Assembly (NCBI GenBank): GCA_040905465.1
Contig: JBBDRK010000074.1
Span: 27,552-73,656, forward strand
Source: Trueperaceae bacterium
Lineage (GTDB): Bacteria > Deinococcota > Deinococci > Deinococcales > Trueperaceae
Reading direction: 5' to 3'
DNA: 46,105 nucleotides
Part shown: positions 3,775-16,997 of the stretch, in pieces
Numbering within the stretch: the stretch's first letter is position 1
How the letters are laid out: each line of letters starts with the position of its first letter
The notes under the pieces: model-generated
What the model saw: only the letters and a program-made list of their open reading frames with translations
Told to the model about the DNA's origin: nothing
Databases searched by the model: none
Made by a program: the position numbers and the translations under genes

Positions 3775-5205
3775 ATGGACATCCGCCGCCTCGAGGCTTT
3801 CGTGTTCGAGAAGATGGCCGCCTCGCGCCTGCCCGGGCTGAGCCTTGCGCTCGTCAGGAACGACGAGTTGATCCATGCCAGAGGTTTCGGGCAACGCGAC
3901 CTGAAGCACGGGCTACCGGCAACGCCTTCAACGCTCTACTGCATCGGCAGCGTGACGAAGTCGTTCACCGCCCTGGCCATCATGCGCTTGGCCGAGCGTG
4001 GCCTGCTCGATCCCAGCGACCCGGTGGATCGCTACCTGCCTTTCCCCTTCAGGCCGAAGGGGGGGATCGTCCGGCTCGAGCACCTGCTGGCACACACCTC
4101 GGGCATCCCAGCGCTCGCCTACTCCGAGGCCGTGATCGGACATGCCAACGGGACCGGTAGCCGTTGGCTGCCCATCTCCGGACCGGAGGACGTGCTGACG
4201 TTCATGGACGGAGCCGAGGACTGGGAGGAGAGCAGCCCGGGCGAACGGTGGGCCTATGCCAACGAGGGTTACGCCATGCTCGGCCTCATTATCGAACGGG
4301 TCTCGGGCAAGTCATACCAGGATTACCTGCGCGACGAGATCCTTGTCCCCCTGGGCATGGACCGGACATTCCTGGCCCGCACGGACGTGGAAGCCGCGGA
4401 CGACGTGGCGGTACCGTACGTGCTGCCCCATGACGGGCCGCCGGTTCCCGGGCACTACCTGTACCGGCTGATAAGGAGCGAGGGCGGCCTGATAAGCAGC
4501 GTTCTCGATCTTGCGGGCTACCTCTCGATGTATCTGAGGTACGGCGCGCTGGTGGACGGGCGGCAGTTGGTGAGTCCCGAATCGATCGCGGCGATGGTCC
4601 GCCCCCGCGTCGAGACTCCGTTTCGCACGGCGCCGGAGTTGACCGGCGCTGGCGGCGGCGCTGGGGGCGGCGAGGCGGCTCAGCACTACGGATTCGGGCT
4701 CGCCAGTGAGCAGCTCCTGGGCAGGCGTCTGGTGGGCCACGGCGGTAGCGTGCTCGTGTCCACCGCCCACCTGGCGTTCCTGCCCGAAGAGGGCCTGGGA
4801 GTCGCCGTTCTGGCCAACGGCAGCGGCTACCCGCTGGCCCAGTTGGCGCGCGCGGTGCTGGCTATCGCACTGGGCAGTGAACCCGGTGAACTTCCGACGA
4901 TCCGACTGCAAGACGAGCTGGCAAGGCTGACCGGCGACTATGAAACATTCAAGGGCACGGTACGGGCGACGGTCGAGCGTCACGGTGATTTCCTCAAGCT
5001 GCGCTTCCCGAGCCGAACGAACCCCGATGAGGTGACTCTGGTACCGGAAGGCGTGAGCGGCGGCGAGGCTCGGTTCTTCACCCTCAGCGAAGGGCGCCGC
5101 TTGCCGGTGCTCTTTCGCCGTACCGACGATGGGACGGAGCTGCTGTACGAGCGCCACAAGTTCCGGCGCACGGGGGCGGGGGCAGCTGGGCAGAGGTTTG
5201 GCTGA
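3775..5205 (+). CDS. Serine hydrolase, beta-lactamase class C/D-aminopeptidase (Pab87-like) family
   Basis: SVTK (SxxK), YAN (YxN) and HGG motifs; extra C-terminal domain. Confidence 0.88.
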   Translation: MDIRRLEAFVFEKMAASRLPGLSLALVRNDELIHARGFGQRDLKHGLPATPSTLYCIGSVTKSFTALAIMRLAERGLLDPSDPVDRYLPFPFRPKGGIVRLEHLLAHTSGIPALAYSEAVIGHANGTGSRWLPISGPEDVLTFMDGAEDWEESSPGERWAYANEGYAMLGLIIERVSGKSYQDYLRDEILVPLGMDRTFLARTDVEAADDVAVPYVLPHDGPPVPGHYLYRLIRSEGGLISSVLDLAGYLSMYLRYGALVDGRQLVSPESIAAMVRPRVETPFRTAPELTGAGGGAGGGEAAQHYGFGLASEQLLGRRLVGHGGSVLVSTAHLAFLPEEGLGVAVLANGSGYPLAQLARAVLAIALGSEPGELPTIRLQDELARLTGDYETFKGTVRATVERHGDFLKLRFPSRTNPDEVTLVPEGVSGGEARFFTLSEGRRLPVLFRRTDDGTELLYERHKFRRTGAGAAGQRFG

Positions 5206-5311: not shown

Positions 5312-5339
5312 TGGAATAATTCGCGCCTGTTTCGACGCC
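5312..5339 (+). repeat. Degenerate 28-bp site, putative left boundary: TGGAATAATTC GCGCCT GTTTCGACGCC
   Basis: Core TCGCGCCTGTTT matches the other copies; outer arms diverged. Confidence 0.4.
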
Positions 5340-5568
5340 TCAGATTGCTCAGTAATACCGAGACTCTGTCGTCGGCGACGGTCTCGCCACTTCGGGATTC
5401 TTCACGCTGACCGATCCATGGGTGGTGTGGGGATCCCTCCGCATTATGCCAGACAATCGAAGCCTGTGCTCTTTTGGGAATCAGCCAAGATGGGATGCAC
5501 GTCCGCCGCTTGGGTAATGGGGCATCTAGACAAAACCCAAGCGGCGGACTATTGTAAGAGCACGGGGC

Positions 5569-5853
5569 ATGGGCGGTGGGTTATGGAGCGCCAGGTTACC
5601 CAATATCGACCGCATCGGACCGTTCAAGGTGGTCATCTACTTCGATGACCACGAGCCTGCTCACGTTCATGTAATCCACTCCTCAGGCTGCGTGGCGGTA
5701 TTCAACATCTCGATAATAGGATCGTTGGAGCTGCGGGAAGTGAGGGGAAACATGAAAGTAAACGATGTCAAGCGAGCGCTGAGATTGGTGCAGGAGAAAC
5801 AAGCGGAATACCTGAAGAGTTGGCACAACATCCATGGAGGCGCGCATGAGTGA
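5569..5853 (+). CDS. DUF4160-family protein (putative toxin of a DUF4160/DUF2442 pair)
   Basis: PNIDRIGPFKVVIYFDDHEPAHVHV signature; overlaps the next gene; the likely native start codon at 5596 reads TTA. Confidence 0.75.
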   Translation: MGGGLWSARLPNIDRIGPFKVVIYFDDHEPAHVHVIHSSGCVAVFNISIIGSLELREVRGNMKVNDVKRALRLVQEKQAEYLKSWHNIHGGAHE

Positions 5854-6556
5854 GGCTGCGATTCAGAAGCAAATTGAACGAGCGCGTCGGACGGGTGAAC
5901 GCGCGCTGCAGAAATCGCCCCGAGTGGAAAGTGTCGACTTTCAAGAAGATGATCGACTGCTTGTCCTCAACATGCAAAACGGCCTTTCGGTCCGGATCCC
6001 TGTTGATGAACTTCAGGGCATCTCAAGGGCGCCATGGGCAGACGTCAAGAAGGGAGAGATTGCCGAACAAGGCCTCGCTCTTCACTGGGGCTCCCTAGAC
6101 GTTCACTTTACCGTCCCAGGACTAGTCAAAGGAGTCTACGGCACCAATGAGTGGATGAAGGAAATAGGCCGAAAAGGGGGCCATGCGACGAGCCTCAAGA
6201 AGCGTCGCGCTGCTCAAGTGAATGGCAAACGCGGCGGCCGGCCTCGAAAAGAAGTACGCCAGGACAATGAGCCTGAGGCCGTAACCAAGCAAGTCCTTGT
6301 CGAGTCTATTGCTGAGGACACGGGGTTAAGTGCGACTGACGTGCGAACGGTGATCGATCATTTGTTGCGGACAGTTGCCAGCAACGTAAACGCGGGAAAG
6401 AAGGTGCAACTGACTGGCTTTGGAAGCTTCGAAGTTAGGGAACGGAAGGCACGCTCTGGAGTAGTCCCCGGGAGCACCCAGAGGATTTCCACTCCAAAGA
6501 CAGAAGCGGTCTTTGTTCCCAGCCCTCGAGGCTTCAAGAATAAGGTGAAGCGATAG
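5846..6556 (+). CDS. DUF2442-family antitoxin-like protein fused to an HU/IHF histone-like domain
   Basis: GGAGG RBS; LHWGSLDVHFTVPGL...NGKRGGRPRK (DUF2442 type) followed by VTKQVLVESIAEDTGL...KVQLTGFGSFEVRERKARSG (HU). Confidence 0.8.
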   Translation: MSEAAIQKQIERARRTGERALQKSPRVESVDFQEDDRLLVLNMQNGLSVRIPVDELQGISRAPWADVKKGEIAEQGLALHWGSLDVHFTVPGLVKGVYGTNEWMKEIGRKGGHATSLKKRRAAQVNGKRGGRPRKEVRQDNEPEAVTKQVLVESIAEDTGLSATDVRTVIDHLLRTVASNVNAGKKVQLTGFGSFEVRERKARSGVVPGSTQRISTPKTEAVFVPSPRGFKNKVKR

Positions 6557-6590
6557 TGACGCTTTCAATAGACGCCCGGCCATCTAAGAC

Positions 6591-6618
6591 CTTCCAATTA
6601 CGCGCCCTTCTCAATAAC
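6591..6618 (+). repeat. 28-bp site: CTTCCAATTAC GCGCCC TTCTCAATAAC
   Basis: First 17 nt identical to the copy at 9088; intergenic. Confidence 0.8.
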
Positions 6619-6632
6619 GCCTACTGGGCCGC

Positions 6633-6914
6633 CTACTTCGCGAGTTCTCGGAGCACCTCCGGATGCCTAACGGCGACTTGAAGCAGAGTCCTAGCTGCGC
6701 CCGTCGGTTCGCGGCGACCCTGTTCCCAGTCCTGCAACGTGCGCGGAGAAACGCCAAGCAGCCCGGCGAAATCACGCTGAGACATCCCAACGTGAGCTCG
6801 CGCCGCTGCTACTGGCGACAACTCTACTTCCGTCACCCGCTCTGCCTGTCCCCGCTTCATCTGCTGTACGGACTCGAGCAGATCTTTCTGAAACCTGTCC
6901 ATCTCTCTATTCAT
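6633..6914 (-). CDS. XRE/HTH antitoxin (HigA/YiaG-like)
   Basis: GMSQRDFAGLLGVSPRTLQDWEQGRREPTGAARTLL; lies downstream of a RelE-like toxin. Confidence 0.88.
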   Translation of the reverse strand: MNREMDRFQKDLLESVQQMKRGQAERVTEVELSPVAAARAHVGMSQRDFAGLLGVSPRTLQDWEQGRREPTGAARTLLQVAVRHPEVLRELAK

Positions 6915-7215
6915 CCTCGATACCTCGTTTCAGTTGAGCCAAGAACTCTCTCGGCAGATTGTCGAACTTGGATTTGGTGTAAACGATCAGCAATCAGACG
7001 ACTCCGTCGCGAGCAATGGTATAGATGACCCGAGCCCCTCCACGCTTACCGCGTCCTGCTGACCTCCGAACCTTCCTGCTGCCCCCACTGCCCGGAATCA
7101 GATCGCCGGCCTCCGGGTTCGCAGCAATCCAGGAGATGAACTCCTCTCGCTCCACGTCCGACCAGACATCCGCCGCGTACTTGACGAAGACAGAGGTTTC
7201 GGCGACCGTCCGCAC
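6907..7215 (-). pseudogene. RelE/HigB-like toxin interrupted by an in-frame TGA at 6994-6996
   Basis: NPEAGDLIPGSGGSRKVR...GKRGGARVIY...GVV*LLIVYTKSKFDNL...EDE; the frame continues to a TAG at 6907 that overlaps the antitoxin start. Confidence 0.8.
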
Positions 7216-7220
7216 ACACC

Positions 7221-7249
7221 ACTATACGGCAATGCCGTACCAGCGGCAA
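7221..7249 (-). promoter_or_regulatory. sigma70 promoter TTGCCG-N17-TATAGT with overlapping operator palindrome TACGGCA-T-TGCCGTA; leaderless toxin mRNA
   Basis: Read on the minus strand; -10 lies 5 nt before the GTG at 7215. Confidence 0.7.
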
Positions 7250-7271
7250 GGGAAGTCGAGTCAAACCCAGC

Positions 7272-8097
7272 CTATTGGACGAAGTACCGCTGGTACGCCC
7301 TCCGCCGCGCTGCCCCCGACAACGTCGCGTAACGCAACGTAGTCTCCGGCTTGGCGTGCCCCAGCAAGCTCTGAACCTCGACCAACTCCGCCCCCTGGTT
7401 GATCATGAGCGTCGCGAACGTATGCCGCAGGACGTGAGGCGTCACTCGATCTCGCAGTCCCGCTCGCTCCGCCACCTTATTCACGTGCCAGCGCAGAGTC
7501 GCAACACTCGTCCGCCGCACCGGCTGGTGGGTAGTCACGAATAGGGCTACCTGGTCGTCGCCCCTGGCCGAGAGGTAACGTTTCAGCCAGATCGCCGCCT
7601 TGGCGCCGAAGTAGGCTGCCCTTGCCCAACACCAGGATGCTGCTCTCGCGCCAGTCGACGTCAAACCGGTTCATCCCGTGAACTTCACCGATCCTGGCAC
7701 CTGTGGCGAAGAACACTTCGATCAGGGCGCGCTCGACCGCCTTGCGGCAGGAGTCACGCAACAACTCCAACTCCTCCACGCTCAGGTGCTTCGGCTCCTT
7801 CATACGCGCCGCCGGATTCCCCCGAGTCAAGCCCTCCTCGTGCACCCATCTGAAGAACGCGCGCAAAGCGCGAATCTTGGCGCCGAGGGATGAGGGTTTC
7901 AAGTGCGCGAACGAAGCCAGGAACTCCCGGAGCTGCTCAAGGGTTACATCGAGCACGGACGGGTCGACCAAGTAGACAATGAGTGATCGAAGATGATGCT
8001 CGTACGCGACGAGAGTTGCTCGACTGTACCCTTCACTCCGTCGCCGCAGCAGATATGCCTCGACGACCTCTGACATCCTCCAACACGGAACACCCAT
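7272..8097 (-). pseudogene. XerD-like tyrosine recombinase/integrase with a frameshift near 7617 and a probable in-frame deletion near 7790
   Basis: N-terminal SAM-like domain; TGARIGE, LGKG, HVLRHTFAT, LLGH, TTLRY are split across ORFs 7477-8097 and 7272-7664; GGGAGGGAGG RBS. Confidence 0.9.
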
Positions 8098-8171
8098 GGT
8101 TCCTGCCTCCCTCCCGCTCCGTATGCAGATCAGGAGCAGGAAGGCGCAGCCTAGGGCATCCAGCGGGAAAA

Positions 8172-8199
8172 GCTAAGTTTTCGCGCCCGTATCCTCAAC
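8172..8199 (+). repeat. Integrase-proximal 28-bp site: GCTAAGTTTTC GCGCCC GTATCCTCAAC
   Basis: Same spacer and AAC end as the other copies; 75 bp upstream of the integrase start. Confidence 0.7.
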
Positions 8200-8306
8200 A
8201 GGTCTGCGAGTGAGTGGAAGTATCGCCGCTGGCGCATGGATTCACACTAATCGGAGACGCTGTCGGCAAGTGGGAGGTAGTCGCTGGGCCATGTCGCGGG
8301 ACTACG

Positions 8307-8723
8307 TCAGACGAAGACCTCAACGCTGACCCGGAAATATCCGGCAAGCTTCTTTGCGAGTGTCTTGCTGATACTGCGCTTTCCCGCGAGGATTCGGCTC
8401 AGGTTACCCTGGTCGACGATCCCGTCCTGCGCAAGCTGGTACTGGGTGACGCCCCGTTCCTTCATCAGGTAGGCGAGCATCTCGTGCGGGTCGACGTCGG
8501 GGGTCTTAAGGTCAGGCTCGTTCTCCTGCTCCCATGCATCCGCATAGCTGGCGAGGAGGTCGAAGAGCGAGGCATACGGCTCACGGGTGCAGTCGTAGTT
8601 GTCAGTGAGGTCGCCCAAGAGGGCGATGACCTGTTCGTAGTCCGCCTCGGCCCGGGGTCTGCCGAGCCCGCCCGAGTTGGCTTGGAACTCTGCCCAAGCC
8701 CCCACGACACGTTCGCTTGTCAT
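8307..8723 (-). CDS. higA: HigA-family antitoxin (HTH)
   Basis: LAYLMKERGVTQYQLA...NLSRILAGKRSISK; ATGA overlap with the higB stop; GAGGAGG RBS. Confidence 0.88.
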   Translation of the reverse strand: MTSERVVGAWAEFQANSGGLGRPRAEADYEQVIALLGDLTDNYDCTREPYASLFDLLASYADAWEQENEPDLKTPDVDPHEMLAYLMKERGVTQYQLAQDGIVDQGNLSRILAGKRSISKTLAKKLAGYFRVSVEVFV

Positions 8724-9019
8724 CGTCGTCCTCCTCTGTTCCACTTCTCGTACTCGGCGTGGGTGAAGACGTGCTTGCTGAACACGGTTTGCGCTTCGTA
8801 GCGGATGAAGGTGATCAACCGGTACTTGTTACCGCCGATGTCGAAGACGGTGAGACGCCGCTCGCTTATGTAATCGGCGCTTGGGAAGTCGTTCGATAAT
8901 TCTGCCCAATTGGCGTAGCTGCTGCTCTGCATGAACTTTTGCCAGGCCTTCAGCGGTGCTTCAGCTTGCGGATGCCGCTCCCAAAACTCTCGAAGGGTTC
9001 GGGGGGCGATCACGTTCAC
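8720..9019 (-). CDS. higB: HigB-family mRNA interferase toxin
   Basis: MNVIAPRTLREFWERHP...VFDIGGNKYRLI...THAEYEK; TATACT 6 nt before the GTG (leaderless). Confidence 0.9.
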   Translation of the reverse strand: MNVIAPRTLREFWERHPQAEAPLKAWQKFMQSSSYANWAELSNDFPSADYISERRLTVFDIGGNKYRLITFIRYEAQTVFSKHVFTHAEYEKWNRGGRR

Positions 9020-9087
9020 GACAGCAGTATATGTCAAGACAACCTATGGCATGGTAACATAACCAGCTCTAGGGGGCAGGCGCTCAA

Positions 9088-9115
9088 CTTCCAATTACGC
9101 GCCCGTTTCTGCAAC
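9088..9115 (+). repeat. 28-bp site: CTTCCAATTAC GCGCCC GTTTCTGCAAC
   Basis: Imperfect inverted 11-bp arms around a 6-bp asymmetric spacer. Confidence 0.8.
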
Positions 9116-9121
9116 TACCGG

Positions 9122-9625
9122 CTACCACTTAGAAGTGGGCACTGCCTTCCGTAGGCGCGAGTGATTCTTTCGTGCCTCAGCTAGGAGTTCTTCCCACGTG
9201 TCGGGCGGACTGCCAGACTCGAGCATCTTGCGAAAGATCGCGTAGACGTCGCTTGCACTGCCGTACGCCCGCTTGCTGCGCTCGTCGTTCACCCAAGCGA
9301 AGATGATCACCTTATCTCTTTGGCTGTAGCGGAAGAAGAGGCGGTACTGCTGGAAGAACTTGGCCCTGAACCAGTGCTTGTGCTGCTTTCCAAGCGTCGT
9401 ACCTTGCCGGTACTCAGGCCGTGTGGGGTCTTGCGGAATGACGTCGAAGGCTAGTCTTACGATGGCAGCGAGGCGCTTGGTCGGATTCTTTCTTCTATAA
9501 CCGCTCGCGTCCCGCTGCTTAAGGCGCTCTACCTCCGTGATCAGTTCTTCAAGCTGCTCCAGAAACAGGGAGTGGCCATATATCTTCCACCCACTGATAA
9601 TGATGGGCCTTCCCGATTCGGTCAT
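9122..9625 (-). CDS. yhaV: YhaV-family toxin
   Basis: YRQGTTLGKQHKHWFRAKFFQQYRLFFRY...AWVNDE...PPDTWEEL. Confidence 0.92.
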   Translation of the reverse strand: MTESGRPIIISGWKIYGHSLFLEQLEELITEVERLKQRDASGYRRKNPTKRLAAIVRLAFDVIPQDPTRPEYRQGTTLGKQHKHWFRAKFFQQYRLFFRYSQRDKVIIFAWVNDERSKRAYGSASDVYAIFRKMLESGSPPDTWEELLAEARKNHSRLRKAVPTSKW

Positions 9626-9966
9626 TCATCGTCGTCTTCGAGGGGGACTTCGAGATCCACTTCGACTCCTTCGACCAGCGACCGGGCTCGAGAAATAACG
9701 GTCGGTGTAAGCGCCTGAAGGTGAGTTGGGTTTTCGAGCGTGTCCTGCTCGAGGAATTGTAGGAAGCGCTTGACGATCGGATCGTTCTCCGTTTCCTGCT
9801 CAGCCCTTGTGAGCGTAACGGTGTTGTCGTCGTGCAGGACGAAACGAATCTTATCGGCCGCAGTCAGGCCGAGGGCTTTCCGGATAGGGCTGGGGATCGT
9901 GGTCTGCCCACGGCTGGTCAAGGTGGACTCGCTGAGCAGGACCTCACTGCTGTCCCTGGTGGGCAT
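9622..9966 (-). CDS. prlF: PrlF (SohA)-family AbrB-type antitoxin
   Basis: ESTLTSRGQTTIPSPIRKALGL...DPIVKRFLQFLEQD; acidic C-terminus; overlaps yhaV. Confidence 0.9.
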   Translation of the reverse strand: MPTRDSSEVLLSESTLTSRGQTTIPSPIRKALGLTAADKIRFVLHDDNTVTLTRAEQETENDPIVKRFLQFLEQDTLENPTHLQALTPTVISRARSLVEGVEVDLEVPLEDDDE

Positions 9967-9988
9967 GATTGGCCTCCTCCCTCACAGT

Positions 9989-10006
9989 GTAATGCATTTG
10001 CATTAC
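9989..10006. promoter_or_regulatory. Palindromic operator GTAATGCA-TT-TGCATTAC upstream of prlF
   Basis: Perfect 8-bp inverted repeat just upstream of the prlF RBS. Confidence 0.65.
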
Positions 10007-10053
10007 CTCGTGCCCTGGCAGATGACTACCCGAGTTCTCAAGCGTCTCCAAAA

Positions 10054-10081
10054 GCTCCACGTTCGCGCCCGAATCACGAAC
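10054..10081 (+). repeat. 28-bp site: GCTCCACGTTC GCGCCC GAATCACGAAC
   Basis: Consensus match; between prlF and the AbiE-like module. Confidence 0.75.
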
Positions 10082-10129
10082 TTTTGGGAGCGCCTTGCCT
10101 TAAGAGGGGTGCCAGTGGCCTCAGCCACG

Positions 10130-10190
10130 TATCTACCATCAATCTGCACTTTACCACGCGACATGGTAGAGTGCAGATTGATGGTAGATA
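10130..10190. promoter_or_regulatory. 27-bp inverted repeat (1 mismatch, 7-nt loop) covering the promoter and start of the AbiEi-like gene
   Basis: TATCTACCATCAATCTGCACTTTACCA-cgcgaca-TGGTAGAGTGCAGATTGATGGTAGATA; contains extended -10 TGGTAGAGT and the ATG at 10181. Confidence 0.75.
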
Positions 10191-11188
10191 GGCAAGGCCT
10201 CCAGCAGCTCCTGGATGACACTGCTCGCTACGTGAGCGAGGCGCTGGCAACCGACCTGCACCTACGGCCATGTGGCGACAGCAATTTGCCTCCGTACTTG
10301 CAGAGTGCTTACCAGTTCGCCTGCGGCAGCGTTCTTGGCGTCAAGTGCGTCTTCATGGTGAACCTGTCGGAAGGGCGGGCGGCGCCCGCTTCCCTAGCGA
10401 GACAGATGGCCCGCGTGAAAGACCTTCTCGCACTGCCGGCCGTTTACGTGGCACCGGACCTAAGGGCGTACCAGCGTAAACGCCTCGTCGCGCAAGCGGT
10501 TCCGTTCGTTGTGCCGTTCACGCAGTTGTACCTCCCACCTCTCGGAGTCGACTTTCGCGAGGCTGCACGCAATCGGGCAGTAGAGGCTCCCGAGTTGCTT
10601 AAGCCGGTGACCCAAGTGGTCCTGCTGCATGCCCTGCTCCGGCGCAGCAAGGCTGCTTTGGACGCGCAGTCGGCAGTAGAGGAGCTCGGCTACTCGCCAA
10701 TATCCATTAGTAGGGCCTTTCGCGACCTGGAGGCCGCCGGGCTTGCAATTCGGTGGACCGAGGGAAGGTCGCGACCACTGAGTCTGTCTGGAGCAAAACG
10801 GGACGTGTGGGAGCGCGCGCAACCGCGGCTGGTATCGCCGGTAAGGAGCCGCTACCTCGTACCCGAAGAGCAGTTGGCCGGCGCACTAGAAGCGGGGTTA
10901 ACGGCTCTTGCCCGTTACTCGATGATCTCAGCGCCTTCGGGCCCGACCGTTGCCATGTCGTCGGAATCCTGGCGCCGAATAAAGAAGCGGGTGCCCGTCG
11001 AGCCCTTCTCCCCCAGCGCGCGTGGCGAGCCCGGACAGATGGTGGTCGAGGTGTGGACCTATCCGCCCGCGGCCTTGGCGGAAGGCCCGACCGTGGACAT
11101 CTTGTCGCTGGCCTTGTCGCTGCGGGATGAGCCTGACGAACGAGTTGAGGCCGCACTGGTCGATGCCTTGGAGAACTTGCCGTGGTGA
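10181..11188 (+). CDS. wHTH-containing protein, putative AbiEi-like antitoxin/regulator of a type IV TA or Abi pair
   Basis: RKRLVAQAVPFVVP..QLYLPPLG, central HTH (ELGYSPISISRAFRDLEAAGL), C-terminal VDILSLALSLRDEPDERVE; coupled to the nucleotidyltransferase gene. Confidence 0.6.
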   Translation: MVDRQGLQQLLDDTARYVSEALATDLHLRPCGDSNLPPYLQSAYQFACGSVLGVKCVFMVNLSEGRAAPASLARQMARVKDLLALPAVYVAPDLRAYQRKRLVAQAVPFVVPFTQLYLPPLGVDFREAARNRAVEAPELLKPVTQVVLLHALLRRSKAALDAQSAVEELGYSPISISRAFRDLEAAGLAIRWTEGRSRPLSLSGAKRDVWERAQPRLVSPVRSRYLVPEEQLAGALEAGLTALARYSMISAPSGPTVAMSSESWRRIKKRVPVEPFSPSARGEPGQMVVEVWTYPPAALAEGPTVDILSLALSLRDEPDERVEAALVDALENLPW

Positions 11189-11955
11189 GGGGGCTGGAGA
11201 AGTTCCGGGACTGGTTCGCCGATTTCGAGGACTGCTACGTGCTGATCGGTGGTGCGGCAAGCGATCTGATAATGAGTGATGCCGGTCTTGAGTTTCGAGC
11301 TACCAAGGACCTTGACATCGCGCTGTGCGTTGAAGCGCTCCGTGGCGACTTTGTTGCGGCGTTCTGGCGGTTCGTGGAGGCCGGCGGGTACCAGACGCGG
11401 GAACGGAGCGGCGGAACCCGCGAATACTTTCGATTCCTCAAGCCTGCGAACGATGAATTCCCAGTGATGCTGGAGCTGTTCACGCGCAGCCTTGATTCGA
11501 TTCCCGCGCCGGCGGGCTCGGGGCTGATCTCTATCCCTGCGGACACGGATTTGTCCAGCCTCTCGGCGATCCTGATGGATGATGCGTACTACGACTGGGT
11601 GATGGCCGGGCGCTACAGCTTGAATGGCGTGCCTGTCGTGGGTGCAGGTCACCTGATTCCCCTGAAGGCGCGCGCGTCCTTGGACTTGTCGGAGCGGCGG
11701 GCGCGCGGCGAAAAGGTGGATGCAAAGGAGATCAGGAAGCATAAGAACGATGTCGTTCGACTCTTGCAGACGCTGCCACCGGTCCCGCTGACGGGAGTTC
11801 CGACTGTTGCCGCGGAGGATGTGGCGCGGTTTGCGGCGGCACTGCGGTTGGAGGGTGTCAACCCCGCGAGTTTTGGAGTTGATGCCTTCGGGGGAGTCGA
11901 TGATGTCGTGGCAATGCTAGAGCTTGTGTATGAGCTTGAGGGGCAAACCCGGTAG
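11182..11955 (+). CDS. Pol-beta-fold nucleotidyltransferase, AbiEii-like toxin
   Basis: YVLIGGAA...RATKDLD (GG + DxD), LIPLKARA, KHKNDV. Confidence 0.65.
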   Translation: MVRGLEKFRDWFADFEDCYVLIGGAASDLIMSDAGLEFRATKDLDIALCVEALRGDFVAAFWRFVEAGGYQTRERSGGTREYFRFLKPANDEFPVMLELFTRSLDSIPAPAGSGLISIPADTDLSSLSAILMDDAYYDWVMAGRYSLNGVPVVGAGHLIPLKARASLDLSERRARGEKVDAKEIRKHKNDVVRLLQTLPPVPLTGVPTVAAEDVARFAAALRLEGVNPASFGVDAFGGVDDVVAMLELVYELEGQTR

Positions 11956-12045
11956 ACGCTCATCCCCGCGAAATGTGCGAAGCCCTATACCAAGGCGACT
12001 TGCGAACTGATGACGTTCTAACACTCTCGCGATGAGTCTACTTTT

Positions 12046-12073
12046 CCTCCACTTTCGCGCCTTAAACGACAAG
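12046..12073 (+). repeat. 28-bp site: CCTCCACTTTC GCGCCT TAAACGACAAG
   Basis: Consensus match; intergenic. Confidence 0.7.
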
Positions 12074-12285
12074 AATTCAGCCAGACAAGTTGCGCTTGAT
12101 CCCACTGACTGAGCTGCGGGCGAGACCACGTTGCACCGCCTGCGAGTTTCTGCCTCGCACAAGCTCGTTCTGCCCGACAACGTAGTGCTGCCCGCGATGC
12201 CTGAAGTACGGACTCTGGTTGCTTCTGCTTCCCAGGGTGCGCTGGCACCCCCCTGCCCAGAGAGTGCGGGTCGCAACGCAGTAAC

Positions 12286-13449
12286 TCACCCTCTCAGCAA
12301 TCGCTCTGAGCGAGGATAATCTCCAGATGGTGGCAGGGGCGACTCTGGGAGAGTGAAGTATATCGTCGTCCCCTCGCCGACGCGCCCCTCAGCCCAGATG
12401 CGTCCGCCGTGGCGGTTGACAATACGGTGAGCGGTCGCCAGGCCGAGTCCTAGGCCGTCATAGTCGCCTGGCTTGTGCAACCGCTGGAACGGCTGGAACA
12501 GCTTGTCTGAATACTCAGGGTCGAAGCCGACGCCGTTATCGCGAACGAAGAATACGACTTCCCCGCAACGTTCCTGACCACCCACCTGCACGTCCGCCGG
12601 CTGCACGCCCCTTGTGAACTTCCAGGCGTTATCCAGCAGGTTCGTGAGCATTGTCCGAAGCAGGGAGGGGTCTCCTCTCGCTAGCAGCCCCTCCGCGAAT
12701 TCGACTCGAACTTCCCTTCCCGGCTCCTGCTCCGCCAAGCCCGTCGACACGCTGAACGCGATTTCCGTAATGTTTACTTGCTGCTGTCGGATCTCGGCCC
12801 GCGCCAAACGCGATAGAGAGAGCAGCGCTTCGATCAGGGCGCCCATGCGGGCAGTAGCCGCATCTACCCGCTGTAAGTACTCCCTGCCCGTCTCGTCGAG
12901 GACGTCACCATATTCCTCCAGTAGAAGGTTGCTGTAGCCGTTGATGCCACGCAATGGTGTGCGAAGGTCGTGTGCGATGTTGTAATTGATCGCTTCCAGT
13001 TCCTCGTTGAGCTCTCGCAAATCGGCAGTGCGGTTGTTGACCCGTGTTTCAAGTTCGAGATTCAGGCGTTCTAATTCCCGGGTGAGAAGCTGTTTCGCCA
13101 GATATTCCCTTACGAGGACAGCGGCTGTTAAGAAGTAGGCCAGGCGGACGAATGAATTCCATACGGGTGCCCAGATTGTGGTGTAGTAAGGTGGCCCGCT
13201 TAGTTCCGTCAGGTACCAAGTTCCCGCAGCCAGCGCGGCAACAGTATAGCCGCCTCCGCGCGTACCGCTTAGACCAGCTACGGTCACGGGAATCAGGTAG
13301 AAGATGGAAACACCGAACTCACTACCGGTGATTAAGTCGACGTACGCGACTAGGAAGGTGAGCGCAATGGCCAGGAGAAACAGCAACCAAGGGGGCATGC
13401 GCTGCAAGGCATCCGGCCTATCTTCTCTCACTGCCGATCCTCCGGACAC
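12286..13449 (-). CDS. Orphan membrane sensor histidine kinase
   Basis: ~4 TM helices; AHDLRTPL (H box), NLLDNAWKF, DNGVGF, LFQPFQRLH, GLGLGLA; start codon uncertain. Confidence 0.9.
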   Translation of the reverse strand: MSGGSAVREDRPDALQRMPPWLLFLLAIALTFLVAYVDLITGSEFGVSIFYLIPVTVAGLSGTRGGGYTVAALAAGTWYLTELSGPPYYTTIWAPVWNSFVRLAYFLTAAVLVREYLAKQLLTRELERLNLELETRVNNRTADLRELNEELEAINYNIAHDLRTPLRGINGYSNLLLEEYGDVLDETGREYLQRVDAATARMGALIEALLSLSRLARAEIRQQQVNITEIAFSVSTGLAEQEPGREVRVEFAEGLLARGDPSLLRTMLTNLLDNAWKFTRGVQPADVQVGGQERCGEVVFFVRDNGVGFDPEYSDKLFQPFQRLHKPGDYDGLGLGLATAHRIVNRHGGRIWAEGRVGEGTTIYFTLPESPLPPSGDYPRSERLLRG

Positions 13450-13535
13450 TCATACTATCGGTGACCTGGGTGAGAACGCGAAGGAGCCCGGACCGCGCAC
13501 TGCCAGCCAAGAACTGAAGTATGGGATGAGCAATT

Positions 13536-13563
13536 CCTCAACTGTCGCGCCCAGGTGTTGAAG
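13536..13563 (+). repeat. 28-bp site: CCTCAACTGTC GCGCCC AGGTGTTGAAG
   Basis: Consensus match with TCAAC/GTTGA dyad symmetry. Confidence 0.75.
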
Positions 13564-14159
13564 CTAGGGGCGGTTCATGTCTTCGTTAAGCACCTGTACC
13601 TGGACGCGCCCGCCACGGGCCGGGCGGCAACCACTCGAGGTCGAAGGGCCGAGCCAATTTTCCGGTTGGATTTTGAAAGGTTCAGGGAGTCACACTATCC
13701 CATGGAAGCTAACCAAAGAATCGAGCCGAAAAACCTGTTGTCCAACATGAAGGCACGGACTCTAGGCGCCTATGCAAACTCGGGTACGCCAAGCGAAGTC
13801 GCCAAGCAACTCGAGATGACCGGACCGGCAGTCTGCCCGCCGAATCTCACGGATGCTGGCCCACTGGCTTCTCACCCAGCGACTCCACGAAACGCAGCAG
13901 ATACCGTCCATGACGAGGAATTCCCGGTGGCCGTGCAACACCTCATGCTGTTGGTACCAGTTCGTCTCGACCTCCACCTTGACCGGGTAATTTGCCGCAC
14001 TTAGCCGCTCCCTGGTAGGCAGCAAGCTGGCGACTTCAATCTGCAAAGGGGCGGTCCAACGGCCCTGTCCTGCGCGACAGCGATTCCAACCCGCAGTGGA
14101 CCGCCACTAGCCTTCCCGACATTCGCTGCTCCTATACTCGAGACCAGGAGGAGAGTGCC

Positions 14160-14720
14160 TTGGCAAAGCTCATCTATTCAGCACTGGCGTCGGTTGACGG
14201 ATACATCGAGAGCGACGACGGCAAGTTCGACTGGGCCCAGCCCGATACGGAGGTGCACGAGTTCATCAACGAGTTATTGCGACCGGTGGGCACGCACCTC
14301 TACGGGCGGCGCATGTACGAGGTGATGTCCGCCTGGGAGGCACTGCGGGAGCGATCCGATCTGCCCGCGGCCGAGCGGGAGTTCGCCGCCATCTGGCACG
14401 ATTCGGACAAGATCGTCTACTCGCGCACGCTGGCGCAGGTCACGACCGAGCGGACCAGGCTCGAGCGGGAGTTCGAGCCCACAGCGGTGCAGGGGATGAA
14501 GGAAGCGGCCAGGATGGACTTGACGGTTTCCGGTCCCGAACTGGCGGCGGTTGCCTTCGCCGCCGGAATCGTCGACGAGGTTCATCTGTTCCTGGTACCC
14601 GTGTCGGTCGGCTCGGGCAAACCCGCTTTACCCAAGGGCCTTCGGCTGAGCCTCGAGCTGCTCGACCAGCGCCAATTCGGCAACGGCACGGTCCACCTCC
14701 ACTACCGCCCCACTCGCTGA
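14160..14720 (+). CDS. Dihydrofolate reductase family / RibD C-terminal domain protein
   Basis: LASVDGYI, LYGRRMYE, VDEVHLFLVPVSVGSGK, FGNGTVHLHY; GGAGG RBS. Confidence 0.88.
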   Translation: MAKLIYSALASVDGYIESDDGKFDWAQPDTEVHEFINELLRPVGTHLYGRRMYEVMSAWEALRERSDLPAAEREFAAIWHDSDKIVYSRTLAQVTTERTRLEREFEPTAVQGMKEAARMDLTVSGPELAAVAFAAGIVDEVHLFLVPVSVGSGKPALPKGLRLSLELLDQRQFGNGTVHLHYRPTR

Positions 14721-14739
14721 TCGGCAAAAGCCTTAATCT

Positions 14740-14767
14740 TATCCAAGCTCCTGCCTGTTTTGCAAAC
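14740..14767 (+). repeat. 28-bp site with variant spacer: TATCCAAGCTC CTGCCT GTTTTGCAAAC
   Basis: TCCAA..TC left arm, GTTT...AAC right arm. Confidence 0.6.
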
Positions 14768-14772
14768 ATCGC

Positions 14773-14802
14773 TTTACACAGTGGACCACTGTGAGATATG
14801 AT
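14773..14802 (+). promoter_or_regulatory. hipBA promoter TTTACA-N18-TATGAT with operator palindrome CACAGTGG-A-CCACTGTG
   Basis: Directly visible; palindrome at 14777-14793. Confidence 0.65.
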
Positions 14803-14811
14803 GTTGACACT

Positions 14812-15150
14812 ATGCCCACTCCTCATCGTCCACCGCTAGCGGTCGAGCGAGCCTTGCGACAGCTTGGCCGGGATCTTCGAACCGCTCGCTTGCGTCGGCG
14901 CTTGAGCATGCAGACCGTGGCAGAGCGGGCATTCACCTCGAGGCCGACGCTACAGCGCGTCGAGCGAGGTGACTCGGGCGTTGGCATGGGCATTTACGCG
15001 GCGGTAGTGAACGCTTTGGGGTTGCTCGACCGACTGGCGGCGGTGACTAGCCCGCGGGAAGACGAAGTTGGCCTGGCGTTGGCCGAGGAGGACCTGCCGC
15101 AGCGGGCGGGAGAGTGGGCAGGGCGGAAGCGGGAACGCAATGAAGGATGA
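14812..15150 (+). CDS. HipB-like XRE HTH antitoxin
   Basis: LRTARLRRRLSMQTVAERAFTSRPTLQRVERGD; directly upstream of hipA. Confidence 0.85.
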   Translation: MPTPHRPPLAVERALRQLGRDLRTARLRRRLSMQTVAERAFTSRPTLQRVERGDSGVGMGIYAAVVNALGLLDRLAAVTSPREDEVGLALAEEDLPQRAGEWAGRKRERNEG

Positions 15151-16390
15151 GGTGCTGGTCTTCATCGACCACACTGGTGAGCCCGTCAGGGTTGGGAGTC
15201 TGCACCGCGAACCGCGGCGCGGTTACGAGGCGGTGGGATTCCGCTACAGCGATGCCTGGTTGGGTCGGCCTGACGCCTTCTCGTTGGAACCGGCATTGGC
15301 GCTGGGCCCCGGCGCCTTCTCACCACGGTCGGGTCATAGGTTGTTCGGATCGCTGGGCGACTCGGCGCCTGACACGTGGGGGCGGCAGCTCCTGCGGCAT
15401 GCGGAGCGAAGGCAGGCGAATCGGGAGGGCAGGCCGGTGCGGAGCCTGCACGAGTTGGACTTCCTACTGGGGGTGGCCGATGTTGCGCGGATCGGGGCGC
15501 TGCGCTTCCGCCGGCCGAAAGAGGAGGTGTTCCTGGCGCCGAACGCGGACGGGGTGCCGAGCGTCGTTCATCTGCAGCGGTTGCTGGAGGCGACCGACCG
15601 GACCTTACGGGATGAGGAGTCGGAAGCGGACCTGCGCTTGATCCTGGCGCCCGGCTCGTCACTGGGCGGAGCGCGACCGAAGGCCTCCATGGTCGATGCG
15701 GATGGCTCACTGGCGATCGCCAAGTTCCCCAAGGAGACCGATGAGTACAGCCTGGAACGGTGGGAGGCTATCGCGCTGGCACTGGCCGCGCTTGCGGGCA
15801 TCCGGACAGCTAGGAGCAGGCTGGTGGACGTGGCTGGTAGGCCGGTGCTCGTGGTGCGACGATTTGACCGACTGGGCGAGAAGCGGATCCCGTTCCTGTC
15901 GGCCTTGTCGATGCTGGCCCGTGCCGATGGTGAGCGGGCGAGCTATCCTGAGCTAGTCGACGCCCTGACTCGCCATGGGGCGGCAGCGAAGGGCGATGCG
16001 GTGGAGTTGTACCGGCGCCTGGCGTTCAACGTGCTGGTGTCGACCGTGGATGATCACCTTCGCAATCATGCGTTCCTTTGGGTGGGCTCGAGCGGTTGGA
16101 TGCTCTCCCCGGCTTATGACCTGAACCCGACGCCGGTGGATGTGCGCGAGCGGCGCCTGACCACAAGCATCAGCCTGGAGGACGCCACCTGCGAGGTGGG
16201 CCTCGTTCTGGAGGTGGCCGCCTACTTCGACCTCTCCCATGGCAAGGCGCGCGAGGTCGTGCGGGAGGTGGCCCTAACCACTCGAACCTGGCGCGGGGTG
16301 GCGACATCCTGCGGGGCAACTCCCGGTGAAATCGAGCGGATGGCCAGCGCTTTCGAGCACGAGGACCTGGAGGCAGCCCTTGCCTTGTGA
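15140..16390 (+). CDS. hipA: HipA-family Ser/Thr kinase toxin
   Basis: DSAPDTWG, GSSLGGARPK, AKFP, RRFDR, DDHLRNH, LSPAYDL. Confidence 0.92.
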   Translation: MKDEVLVFIDHTGEPVRVGSLHREPRRGYEAVGFRYSDAWLGRPDAFSLEPALALGPGAFSPRSGHRLFGSLGDSAPDTWGRQLLRHAERRQANREGRPVRSLHELDFLLGVADVARIGALRFRRPKEEVFLAPNADGVPSVVHLQRLLEATDRTLRDEESEADLRLILAPGSSLGGARPKASMVDADGSLAIAKFPKETDEYSLERWEAIALALAALAGIRTARSRLVDVAGRPVLVVRRFDRLGEKRIPFLSALSMLARADGERASYPELVDALTRHGAAAKGDAVELYRRLAFNVLVSTVDDHLRNHAFLWVGSSGWMLSPAYDLNPTPVDVRERRLTTSISLEDATCEVGLVLEVAAYFDLSHGKAREVVREVALTTRTWRGVATSCGATPGEIERMASAFEHEDLEAALAL

Positions 16391-16426
16391 ACCTGCGGCA
16401 GGGCGTGCCTTGCGACACGGCAGCGA

Positions 16427-16454
16427 GCTCCAATTACAGGCAGTTCAGCTCTTG
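16427..16454 (+). repeat. Right-boundary hybrid site: GCTCCAATTAC AGGCAG TTCAGCTCTTG
   Basis: Left arm 9/11 identical to the 6591 and 9088 arms; right arm overlaps the gldC-like stop codon. Confidence 0.55.
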
Positions 16455-16786
16455 CCCCCCGCTTCGGCCTTTACCGCGCGCTCCGCGAACTCGCGCGCGA
16501 ACAGCTTCATCTCGGCGGCCAGCGACTGGTTTCGGGTAGCGCCCTGATACGAGTCTGCCAGCGACATGAGCGTCTGGAATACGAACTCGTTCATCTCCTG
16601 CACGGTCATGTCCTTGGTCCACAGATCGATGCGCATGGCGTTTCGCGTATCGGCGTCCCAGAGGGCAAGCAGCATCGCTCCTGCCGCCTGCTCGCCGGGC
16701 ACCGGCGCCTCGTCTGCCTGCCAACGGATAGCCTCGATTCCATCGTCGGACCTGTCCACCGTTAGTGATATCTCGGAGCGCTTCAT
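16445..16786 (-). CDS. gldC: GldC-like protein
   Basis: SEISLTV...AMLLALWD...MRIDLWTKDMTVQEMNEFVFQTLMSLADSY..AT; TACGAT 7 nt upstream. Confidence 0.75.
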   Translation of the reverse strand: MKRSEISLTVDRSDDGIEAIRWQADEAPVPGEQAAGAMLLALWDADTRNAMRIDLWTKDMTVQEMNEFVFQTLMSLADSYQGATRNQSLAAEMKLFAREFAERAVKAEAGGKS

Positions 16787-16997
16787 GCCACATATCGTAG
16801 CCCGCCGCGCCGTGAGCGGCCGTTCCCAGCGAGCTCTCGGACGCTTGCCGGCCATGTGACGCGCGTCTCATTTAGTCTCGACCTCGGGCCCCATCATGAG
16901 GCGAGCCTTCACGTGGGAGGCGAGCGGGAGAGGCGAGCCAACCGGTATCGCCCGCGCCGACGGACCTTCGCGAGCGGGGCGAAAGGGGGCAGAACAA

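Follow-up and report, generated by a model that had tools for sequence, protein, structure and literature searches.

Sites and genes of the array

The window analysed here is the whole stretch of 46,105 nucleotides from the genome of a Trueperaceae bacterium (65% G+C), and our subject is its interval from 5.3 to 16.4 kb, in which copies of a 28-bp sequence lie between small gene modules, several of them toxin-antitoxin pairs and one holding a broken gene for a small Xer-like tyrosine recombinase, here called the integrase. A sequence-only reading of the window had interpreted this interval as an array of gene cassettes, put together by a tyrosine recombinase through double-strand recombination at 28-bp sites. 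Homologous arrays in other genomes, the strand on which their sites lie and the breaks of homology at the site centre all support that interpretation, and from these comparisons of sequence we consider it likely that the interval is a sedentary, decayed cassette array of a small Xer-like recombinase with double-strand sites of ~30 bp. Its features are collected in Table 1.

All nine site sequences named in the sequence-only reading were found at their coordinates, on the + strand and with the given spacings, when the DNA was read directly. Leave-one-out matrices were made from the eight sites between 5312 and 14740, and the whole 3.53-Mb assembly was scanned on both strands. Five of the seven sites that had been called clear scored 21–29 bits, with zero to two equals outside the array, and thus stand far beyond chance, while the two at 13536 and 14740 proved weak in the same scan. 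The ends of the array, previously described as degenerate, carry the sequences attributed to them, but neither is significant alone: 1320 genome positions score as well as the site at 5312, which obtains 14.3 bits from a sequence-only model built from the window sites (R1), and the site at 16427 escaped R1 even at E ≤ 10. The deviating centre of the copy at 14740 has counterparts in the Bacillaceae arrays described below, where CTGCCC and TGGCCC occur as centre variants.

Table 1. Features of the array region in order of position. Site and cassette designations are putative; bits are leave-one-out scores unless R1 is named, and equals are genome positions that score as high.
Position	Strand	Feature	Score or family source
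5312..5339	+	Left end of array; centre and right arm site-like, left arm not	6.8 bits
5569..6556	+	First cassette: genes for a DUF4160 (DhiT-like toxin) protein and a DUF2442-HU/IHF-like fusion	Pfam, NCBIfam (NCBIfam matches all below curated cut-offs)
6591..6618	+	Recombination site CTTCCAATTAC-GCGCCC-TTCTCAATAAC	21.2 bits, 2 equals outside array
6633..6914	-	HTH_3 antitoxin-like gene (helix-turn-helix, HTH)	Pfam, NCBIfam
6907..7215	-	Small open reading frame (ORF), upstream of the HTH gene and overlapping its start; in-frame TGA	No Pfam or NCBIfam family
7272..8097	-	Xer-like tyrosine recombinase gene, broken	Pfam Phage_int_SAM_1, Phage_integrase
8172..8199	+	Recombination site	21.0 bits, 1 equal outside array
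8307..9037	-	Cassette: HigA-like HTH antitoxin and HigB toxin	Pfam
9088..9115	+	Recombination site CTTCCAATTAC-GCGCCC-GTTTCTGCAAC, best copy	24.0 bits, 0 equals elsewhere
9122..9966	-	Cassette: YhaV toxin and PrlF antitoxin	Pfam
10054..10081	+	Recombination site	29.1 bits, 0 equals outside array
10178..11955	+	Cassette: two overlapping ORFs	No family match (Pfam, NCBIfam)
12046..12073	+	Recombination site	23.9 bits, 0 equals elsewhere
12286..13449	-	Cassette: orphan histidine kinase (HisKA, HATPase_c)	Pfam
13536..13563	+	Weak site	11.9 bits, 114 genome positions as good; R1 14.9 bits
14160..14720	+	Cassette: RibD_C-family reductase	Pfam, NCBIfam
14740..14767	+	Weak site, centre CTGCCT	10.3 bits, 292 genome positions as good
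14791..16390	+	Cassette: HipB-like HTH protein and HipA kinase toxin	Pfam
16427..16454	+	Right end of array; only the left arm GCTCCAATTAC site-like (family D1), remainder overlapping the stop of the gene region 16434-16871	

Beyond the array the motif is almost missing. A profile of the seven clear sites found a single further place in the genome, on contig C81 (E = 0.15), all remaining matches having E ≥ 3; the sequence-only reading had noticed no copy in the other ~35 kb of the window. The place on C81 (L009:3717-3786) consists of two inverted copies ~30 nt apart, the only other window-type sites in this genome, between an MNT/HepT toxin-antitoxin pair and a gene for a Fic-domain protein. 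The 8-base core by itself is not enriched in the window (10 matches vs 11.6 expected), so the signal must reside in the whole unit of 28–38 bp. A strict 21-base pattern with three mismatches allowed likewise occurred at background frequency in 41 related genomes, giving 12 matches vs 12 for the reversed control.

All sites fall into gaps between operons, and the genes differ in orientation, as had been noted from the sequence. The sites keep one orientation whether the operons at a junction converge, diverge or run in tandem, which argues against a promoter or a terminator. The imperfect inversion of the arms that had been ascribed to the sites is mirrored in the base frequencies of 343 homologous sites, but single window sites are only modestly dyadic, with 2–6 of 11 arm positions matching (random mean 3.0, 95th percentile 6).

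The integrase gene is read from the - strand, opposite to the sites, and the site at 8172 sits 75 bp upstream of its start at 8097. Translation places its N-terminal and C-terminal parts in different frames, with an internal deletion that breaks the frame; the two fragments have matches to PF02899/PF13495 and PF00589. Intact homologues of 286 amino acids are 85% identical to the window protein across the first 144 residues; the window protein is without the conserved stretch that follows their GKG motif, and we conclude from this loss that it is truly disrupted. The closest intact integrases are 82–85% identical. Domain matches, and scores obtained from four intact homologues (278–288 amino acids), confirmed the Xer-like character claimed for the integrase: it has a SAM-like N-terminal and a Phage_integrase domain and no arm-binding domain, and the closest solved structures are XerD (1A0P) and XerA (5HXY, 4A8E). 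The four proteins obtained 183–202 bits from the XerC model (cut-off 335), 177–199 bits from the XerD model (cut-off 330) and at best 212 bits from the XerA model, under its cut-off of 220. Integron-integrase models gave 83–98 bits (TIGR02249, cut-off 265) and 53–66 bits (NF011946, cut-off 435).

Homologous integrases and their site arrays

One genome per species was scanned with an alignment of intact homologues, which yielded 495 confirmed relatives, and the best 80 loci were kept. These come mostly from Bacillaceae or other Bacillota, with one Truepera, and their integrases are 40–57% identical to the query alignment. R1, built from window sites only, found 11 matches in the 80 loci (1.26 Mb); 11 of 11 lie on the strand opposite the integrase, and they show better inverted arms around the same GCGCCC centre. 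Seed sites were collected by scanning for N11-GCGCCC-N11 with arms resembling a self-derived consensus. About 100 were obtained (104 by one count), all opposite the integrase strand, a bias that is free of circularity, as the scan treated the two strands equally. With a threshold of at least 12 bits, a matrix built from the seeds located 343 sites in the 80 loci, 316 of them opposite to the integrase and 27 co-directional with it, and 1 site in mononucleotide-shuffled loci. The anticipated co-occurrence of integrase homologues with arrays of such sites is therefore found, and the homologous sites have the same GCGCCC centre.

At least one site is present in 55 of the 80 loci, at least three in 40 and at least five in 30, the maximum being 24 in 20 kb; Paenibacillus-type loci, with integrases of ~40% identity, are nearly site-free (3 sites in 12 loci). 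The consensus of the 343 sites, TaTTCaAsAAwC-GCGCCC-GwTTgyKGAAnA, has mirrored 12-nt arms around an asymmetric centre (12-6-12), and the mean arm match is 5.8 of 11 positions vs 2.9 at random. Clustering around the integrase is pronounced in a 4.3-Mb record of Bacillus horikoshii, scanned with a model built from 100 Bacillaceae sites (R2): all 24 matches at E ≤ 0.1 belong to two clusters, and a 38-kb region around the integrase accounts for 20 of them; with 150 candidates scored per genome, these counts are lower bounds. The integrase family is present on large plasmids as well. On a Bacillus mycoides plasmid (L147, 14098-17640), a hypothetical gene, the integrase gene and an alanine racemase gene are each placed between sites; the annotation names the integrase simply as a 'tyrosine-type recombinase/integrase' and shows neither repeats nor mobile elements at this place. 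A search of three Bacillaceae arrays with Rfam (E ≤ 1) returned only two matches, both at chance level.

The sites delimit cassettes. Where a locus has four sites or more, the site midpoints fall outside ORFs in 282 of 314 cases, although 75% of the bases lie within ORFs. Neighbouring like-oriented sites enclose 207 cassettes, whose median length is 982 bp; of those without the integrase, 93 hold one ORF and 48 hold two, and the cassette ORFs favour the integrase strand (266 vs 56). In 87 single-ORF cassettes, the median distance is 24 nt from the stop codon to the following site and 83 nt from the preceding site to the start of the ORF. Pfam was run on a random 145 of 292 cassette ORFs: the commonest family was the GNAT acetyltransferases (11), followed by GrpB (3), and MFS, ASCH, NUDIX, AraC-type and heavy-metal-associated domains and IS110-type transposases were found in two ORFs each. 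A site upstream of the integrase, such as that at 8172 in the window, recurs in homologous loci: 23 of 47 usable ones have it 100–250 nt before the integrase start, and 12 of 43 have another at most 150 nt from the integrase stop, so that the integrase gene often looks like a cassette itself.

Short spacings form a group of their own in the Bacillaceae loci, where 38 of 276 site-to-site distances are below 150 nt and cluster at 34–35, 42–46 and 56–58 nt. In such pairs (for example L054:2768/2812, L069:5898/5941 and L075:9701/9735), a site with a TGGCCC or CTGCCC centre often stands just before a GCGCCC site, and some partners are inverted. The TGGCCC/CTGCCC partners may represent a second site type or an accessory site.

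Other branches of the integrase family have other sites. Two genomes of the window's family encode homologues with 52–53% identity, and a Truepera encodes one with 51%; these are accompanied by sites with GCGCGC or GCGCTC centres and TGC...GCA arms (L135:10488; L136:11377 and 17921; L137:1397, 8152 and 11319; L036:9883). These occur singly or in mixed orientation rather than in arrays, ~90 nt upstream of the integrase gene in two loci. Since the site type changes with the integrase clade, a cognate relationship between protein and site is supported. A metagenome scan with one protein gave nothing; a second scan gave 14 loci (27–61% identity) with no array and 3 isolated weak matches to the GCGCCC matrix (7.5–14.4 bits).

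To see where cassettes begin and end, the 80 loci, their integrase genes masked, were compared all against all by BLAST. Among 481 usable match ends, 33 lie at most 6 nt from a site centre, compared with 1.7 expected. Rossellomorea and Bacillus loci, for instance, share one 94% identical cassette in different neighbourhoods, and the identity begins and ends inside sites. For nine boundaries, three left and six right ends, a site is present in both partners, and in 9 of 9 identity is lost beyond the 6-bp centre: it spans the ORF-proximal arm up to or into the centre, left ends starting at the centre. Such a loss is the pattern that strand exchange at the borders of the centre would be expected to leave. 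A coincidence of module boundaries with the spacer, for which the sequence-only reading had proposed a check, is thus seen between genera in the Bacillaceae arrays, where cassette homology ends in the 6-bp centre.

The window sites were also approached from the Bacillaceae side. With a matrix made only from Bacillaceae sites and a background of 65% G+C, the entire genome that holds the window gave 7 matches of at least 10 bits. Window sites account for three of them, at 9088 (20.7 bits), 10054 (13.6 bits) and 8172 (12.7 bits), and one is the place on C81. The top match, C18:31292 in the same genome with 21 bits, was set aside as probably due to chance, because it lies inside an ORF of 825 amino acids and has the centre GCGCCG.

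A probable decayed cassette array and its alternatives

In the reading we favour, a circular cassette with one site would recombine with a site of the array, strands being exchanged at the borders of the 6-bp centre, and the inserted cassette would end up flanked by two directly repeated sites. Further rounds of insertion would produce an array with all sites in the same direction, each cassette beginning with the right arm of one site and ending with the left arm of its successor. The two ends of the window array would then be hybrid sites, consisting of centre and right arm at 5312 and of the left arm at 16427, as predicted for the outermost half-sites. We infer that these sites are the substrates to which the integrase binds and at which it cuts, that cassettes pass through a circular intermediate and that those of the window arrived by this route.

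Two genomes of the same genus, G001 and G002, carry a few window-type sites and show the region without the array. Its flanks are syntenic in both, ~150 bp apart in G001 and ~1.0 kb apart, with another gene between them, in G002, and the gene region at 16434-16871 on the right is conserved in both. As the flanks nearly adjoin there, the array is an island of 11.6 kb. When the proteins of the window cassettes were compared with the other site-bearing loci of these two genomes, only the histidine kinase was matched. Beside the equivalent of the site at 6591, G002 keeps the HTH module on the right at 83% identity and has a different gene on the left; its module is further decayed, the 3' part of the integrase gene and the start of the small ORF being deleted. 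By its position, the small ORF is the putative disrupted toxin partner of the HTH gene. The stop codon in this putative toxin gene, together with the disruption of the adjoining integrase gene, indicates that the window array is probably frozen.

Several observations weigh against the cassette-array reading. Neither recombination nor binding nor a circular junction has been seen, and the integrase of the window is broken. Joints at the sites, in line with the proposal of the sequence-only reading to look for circular junctions in reads, were sought in the contigs of three public runs, all from one study, and were missing; one run is probably the source of the window DNA and one holds a few identical fragments, and these data are uninformative on past mobility. 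Together with the broken integrase, the missing joints suggest a frozen array in which capture is historical. The sites at 13536 and 14740 are weak, and those at the two ends are not significant alone. A cmsearch with R2 (default filters, E ≤ 10) on the window and neighbouring loci gave 0 matches, so the cross-recognition described above rests on our own matrix with its G+C-adjusted background. The Bacillaceae seed sites were chosen with a self-derived consensus, and the ORFs came from a crude longest-ORF caller. Unlike the strongly biased Bacillaceae cassettes (266 vs 56), the window cassettes are oriented 4 vs 4. There is no site at the syntenic empty junctions of G001 and G002, which leaves the entry of the island unexplained. 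Finally, in the single comparison available within the window's genus, the similarity between the site at 6591 and G002 extends ~18 nt to the left of the centre, and the break is therefore not mapped to the centre in this lineage.

Among the alternatives, the one that survives best, improbable as we hold it to be, is that host dimer resolvases inserted the modules at Xer-type sites, as has been proposed for pdif modules, with the integrase as a bystander. The 11-6-11 architecture, the toxin-antitoxin modules and the persistence of the array despite a broken integrase would suit this explanation, and the pdif modules of Acinetobacter plasmids are likewise accessory modules, toxin-antitoxin pairs included, bounded by 28-bp Xer-type sites. 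However, in pdif modules the sites stand in alternating orientation and host XerC/XerD are believed to act on them, with no dedicated recombinase, whereas the sites considered here are direct repeats that accompany this integrase family across distant genomes on a fixed relative strand (316 vs 27). They also recur 100–250 nt upstream of the integrase in about half of the usable loci (23 of 47), and their centre and arms follow the integrase clade. The single-site Xer systems, namely XerA/dif of archaea, XerH/difH, XerS/difSL and XerC/XerD/dif, resemble the present one in the fold and size of the recombinase and in the two inverted arms around a 6-bp centre, but they serve one dimer-resolution site, whereas here many sites per replicon bound accessory genes.

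That the motif is no recombination site but a regulatory or protein-binding element, for instance an operator or the site of a nucleoid protein, strikes us as slightly less credible still. It is short and intergenic, one cassette encodes an HU/IHF-like domain, and a site upstream of the integrase gene could serve autoregulation. This explanation is contradicted by the single orientation of the motif at convergent, divergent and tandem junctions, by the fact that cassette homology between genomes stops at its centre, and by its linkage, across distant taxa, to the recombinase and not to any regulator.

Integrons are the textbook system for the capture and shuffling of gene cassettes, and the layout described here invites the comparison. 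As in integrons, the array consists of short cassettes and goes with a tyrosine recombinase, and its sites point in one direction and follow the cassette ORF. The cassettes carry toxin-antitoxin pairs in the window and acetyltransferases with many unknowns in Bacillaceae, and chromosomal integrons typically hold genes of these three kinds. An unusual integron, or an integrase-less attC cluster, with very short attC sites could thus account for toxin-antitoxin cassettes adjoining a tyrosine recombinase gene and for Bacillaceae cassettes of ~1 kb that run mostly in one direction and contain GNAT acetyltransferases as the commonest family (11 of 145 ORFs). We nevertheless judge it very unlikely. 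The integrases, of 278–288 amino acids, remain far below the integron-integrase cut-off (83–98 vs 265 bits) and score higher with XerC and XerD, and no integron integrase was among the solved structures matched at E ≤ 1e-10. attC sites are imperfectly palindromic, form hairpins as single strands and share a conserved structure rather than a conserved sequence. When five junctions of the window were folded as single-stranded DNA, on both strands, z ranged from -1.97 to +1.28 and no common hairpin emerged, in agreement with the earlier statement that the sites are unlike attC hairpins. The conserved unit here is instead a primary sequence of 28–30 bp with a fixed centre, a double-strand core site. 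The integrase is Xer-like and lies within the array, often flanked by sites and co-directional with the cassettes, whereas an integron integrase stands at the array end and diverges from cassettes that are served by attI and a cassette promoter; no separate attI is evident here. Since all curated cut-offs for XerA, XerC, XerD and integron integrases were missed and the family is accompanied by site arrays, we regard the system as neither an integron nor a dimer-resolution system.

A chance resemblance of the sites, or the remnant of one local duplication, for which the background frequencies of the 8-base core (10 vs 11.6) and of the 21-base pattern (12 vs 12 in 41 genomes) might be invoked, can practically be dismissed in view of the leave-one-out scores, the recognition by the Bacillaceae matrix and the hundreds of homologous sites elsewhere.

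Wider occurrence and neighbouring genes

With the cassette-array reading retained, we lean, by a small margin of belief, towards a broader view: the window would be a relic of a separate class of gene-capture platform, in which a small Xer-like recombinase collects cassettes at duplex sites of ~30 bp with a GCGCCC centre and the integrase gene, too, acts as a cassette. The platform would be common in Bacillaceae chromosomes and megaplasmids and would have reached at least one G+C-rich bacterium, in whose genome Spo0A was not found. This platform is distinct from integrons and pdif modules in mechanism and parts, all being recombinase-driven cassette platforms. To our knowledge, integrons are held to be missing in Bacillaceae and are regarded as essentially confined to Gram-negative lineages. 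Arrays of such an integrase with GCGCCC sites are apparently undescribed, as the sequence-only reading had suspected: full-text literature searching gave no such arrays, and, as subscription journals and supplements lay outside the search, an earlier description is possible. PMC5737381 concerns another motif recurring between genes. In PMC8138268, gene cassettes are mentioned only under an integron-like recombinase subgroup, and 'Bacill', 'Firmicutes' and 'arrays' do not appear. A preprint (10.1101/2024.11.04.621841) was set aside as unrelated to these arrays.

If the broader view is correct, Xer-type recombinases have given rise to integron-like 'adaptation on demand' on at least two occasions, with folded single-strand sites in one case and duplex sites in the other, and the duplex system has gone unnoticed in public genomes, its recombinase labelled only 'tyrosine-type recombinase/integrase'. 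As a second cassette platform, mechanistically simpler than integrons, it would constitute a new mobile reservoir of accessory genes, so far acetyltransferases, efflux proteins and toxin-antitoxin pairs, as well as a test case for how cassette platforms evolve from Xer recombinases, and it might supply a compact recombinase-site pair for genome engineering. With intact integrases and cultured hosts at hand, the question can be put to a direct test. The window copy itself carries lesser weight, as a frozen island that shows the spread and decay of the system.

The remaining observations concern single genes in and beside the window array. The gene at 5834-6556, in the first cassette, encodes a DUF2442 protein fused to an HU/IHF-like DNA-binding domain, which could be a DNA-bending accessory factor for the adjoining sites or merely the DNA-binding part of an antitoxin. 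Between 13555 and 14150, upstream of the reductase gene, no recognisable gene was found. Left of the array, the gene at 3775-5205 encodes a protein of the Beta-lactamase family with a Pab87 octamerisation domain; it is present in G002 and missing from the syntenic place in G001, so that the left flank of the island is itself variable. At 10130-10190, an inverted repeat of 27 nt, 96% complementary and with 7 nt between its arms, overlaps the ORF start at 10178 and, from its sequence, looks like an operator of that cassette.

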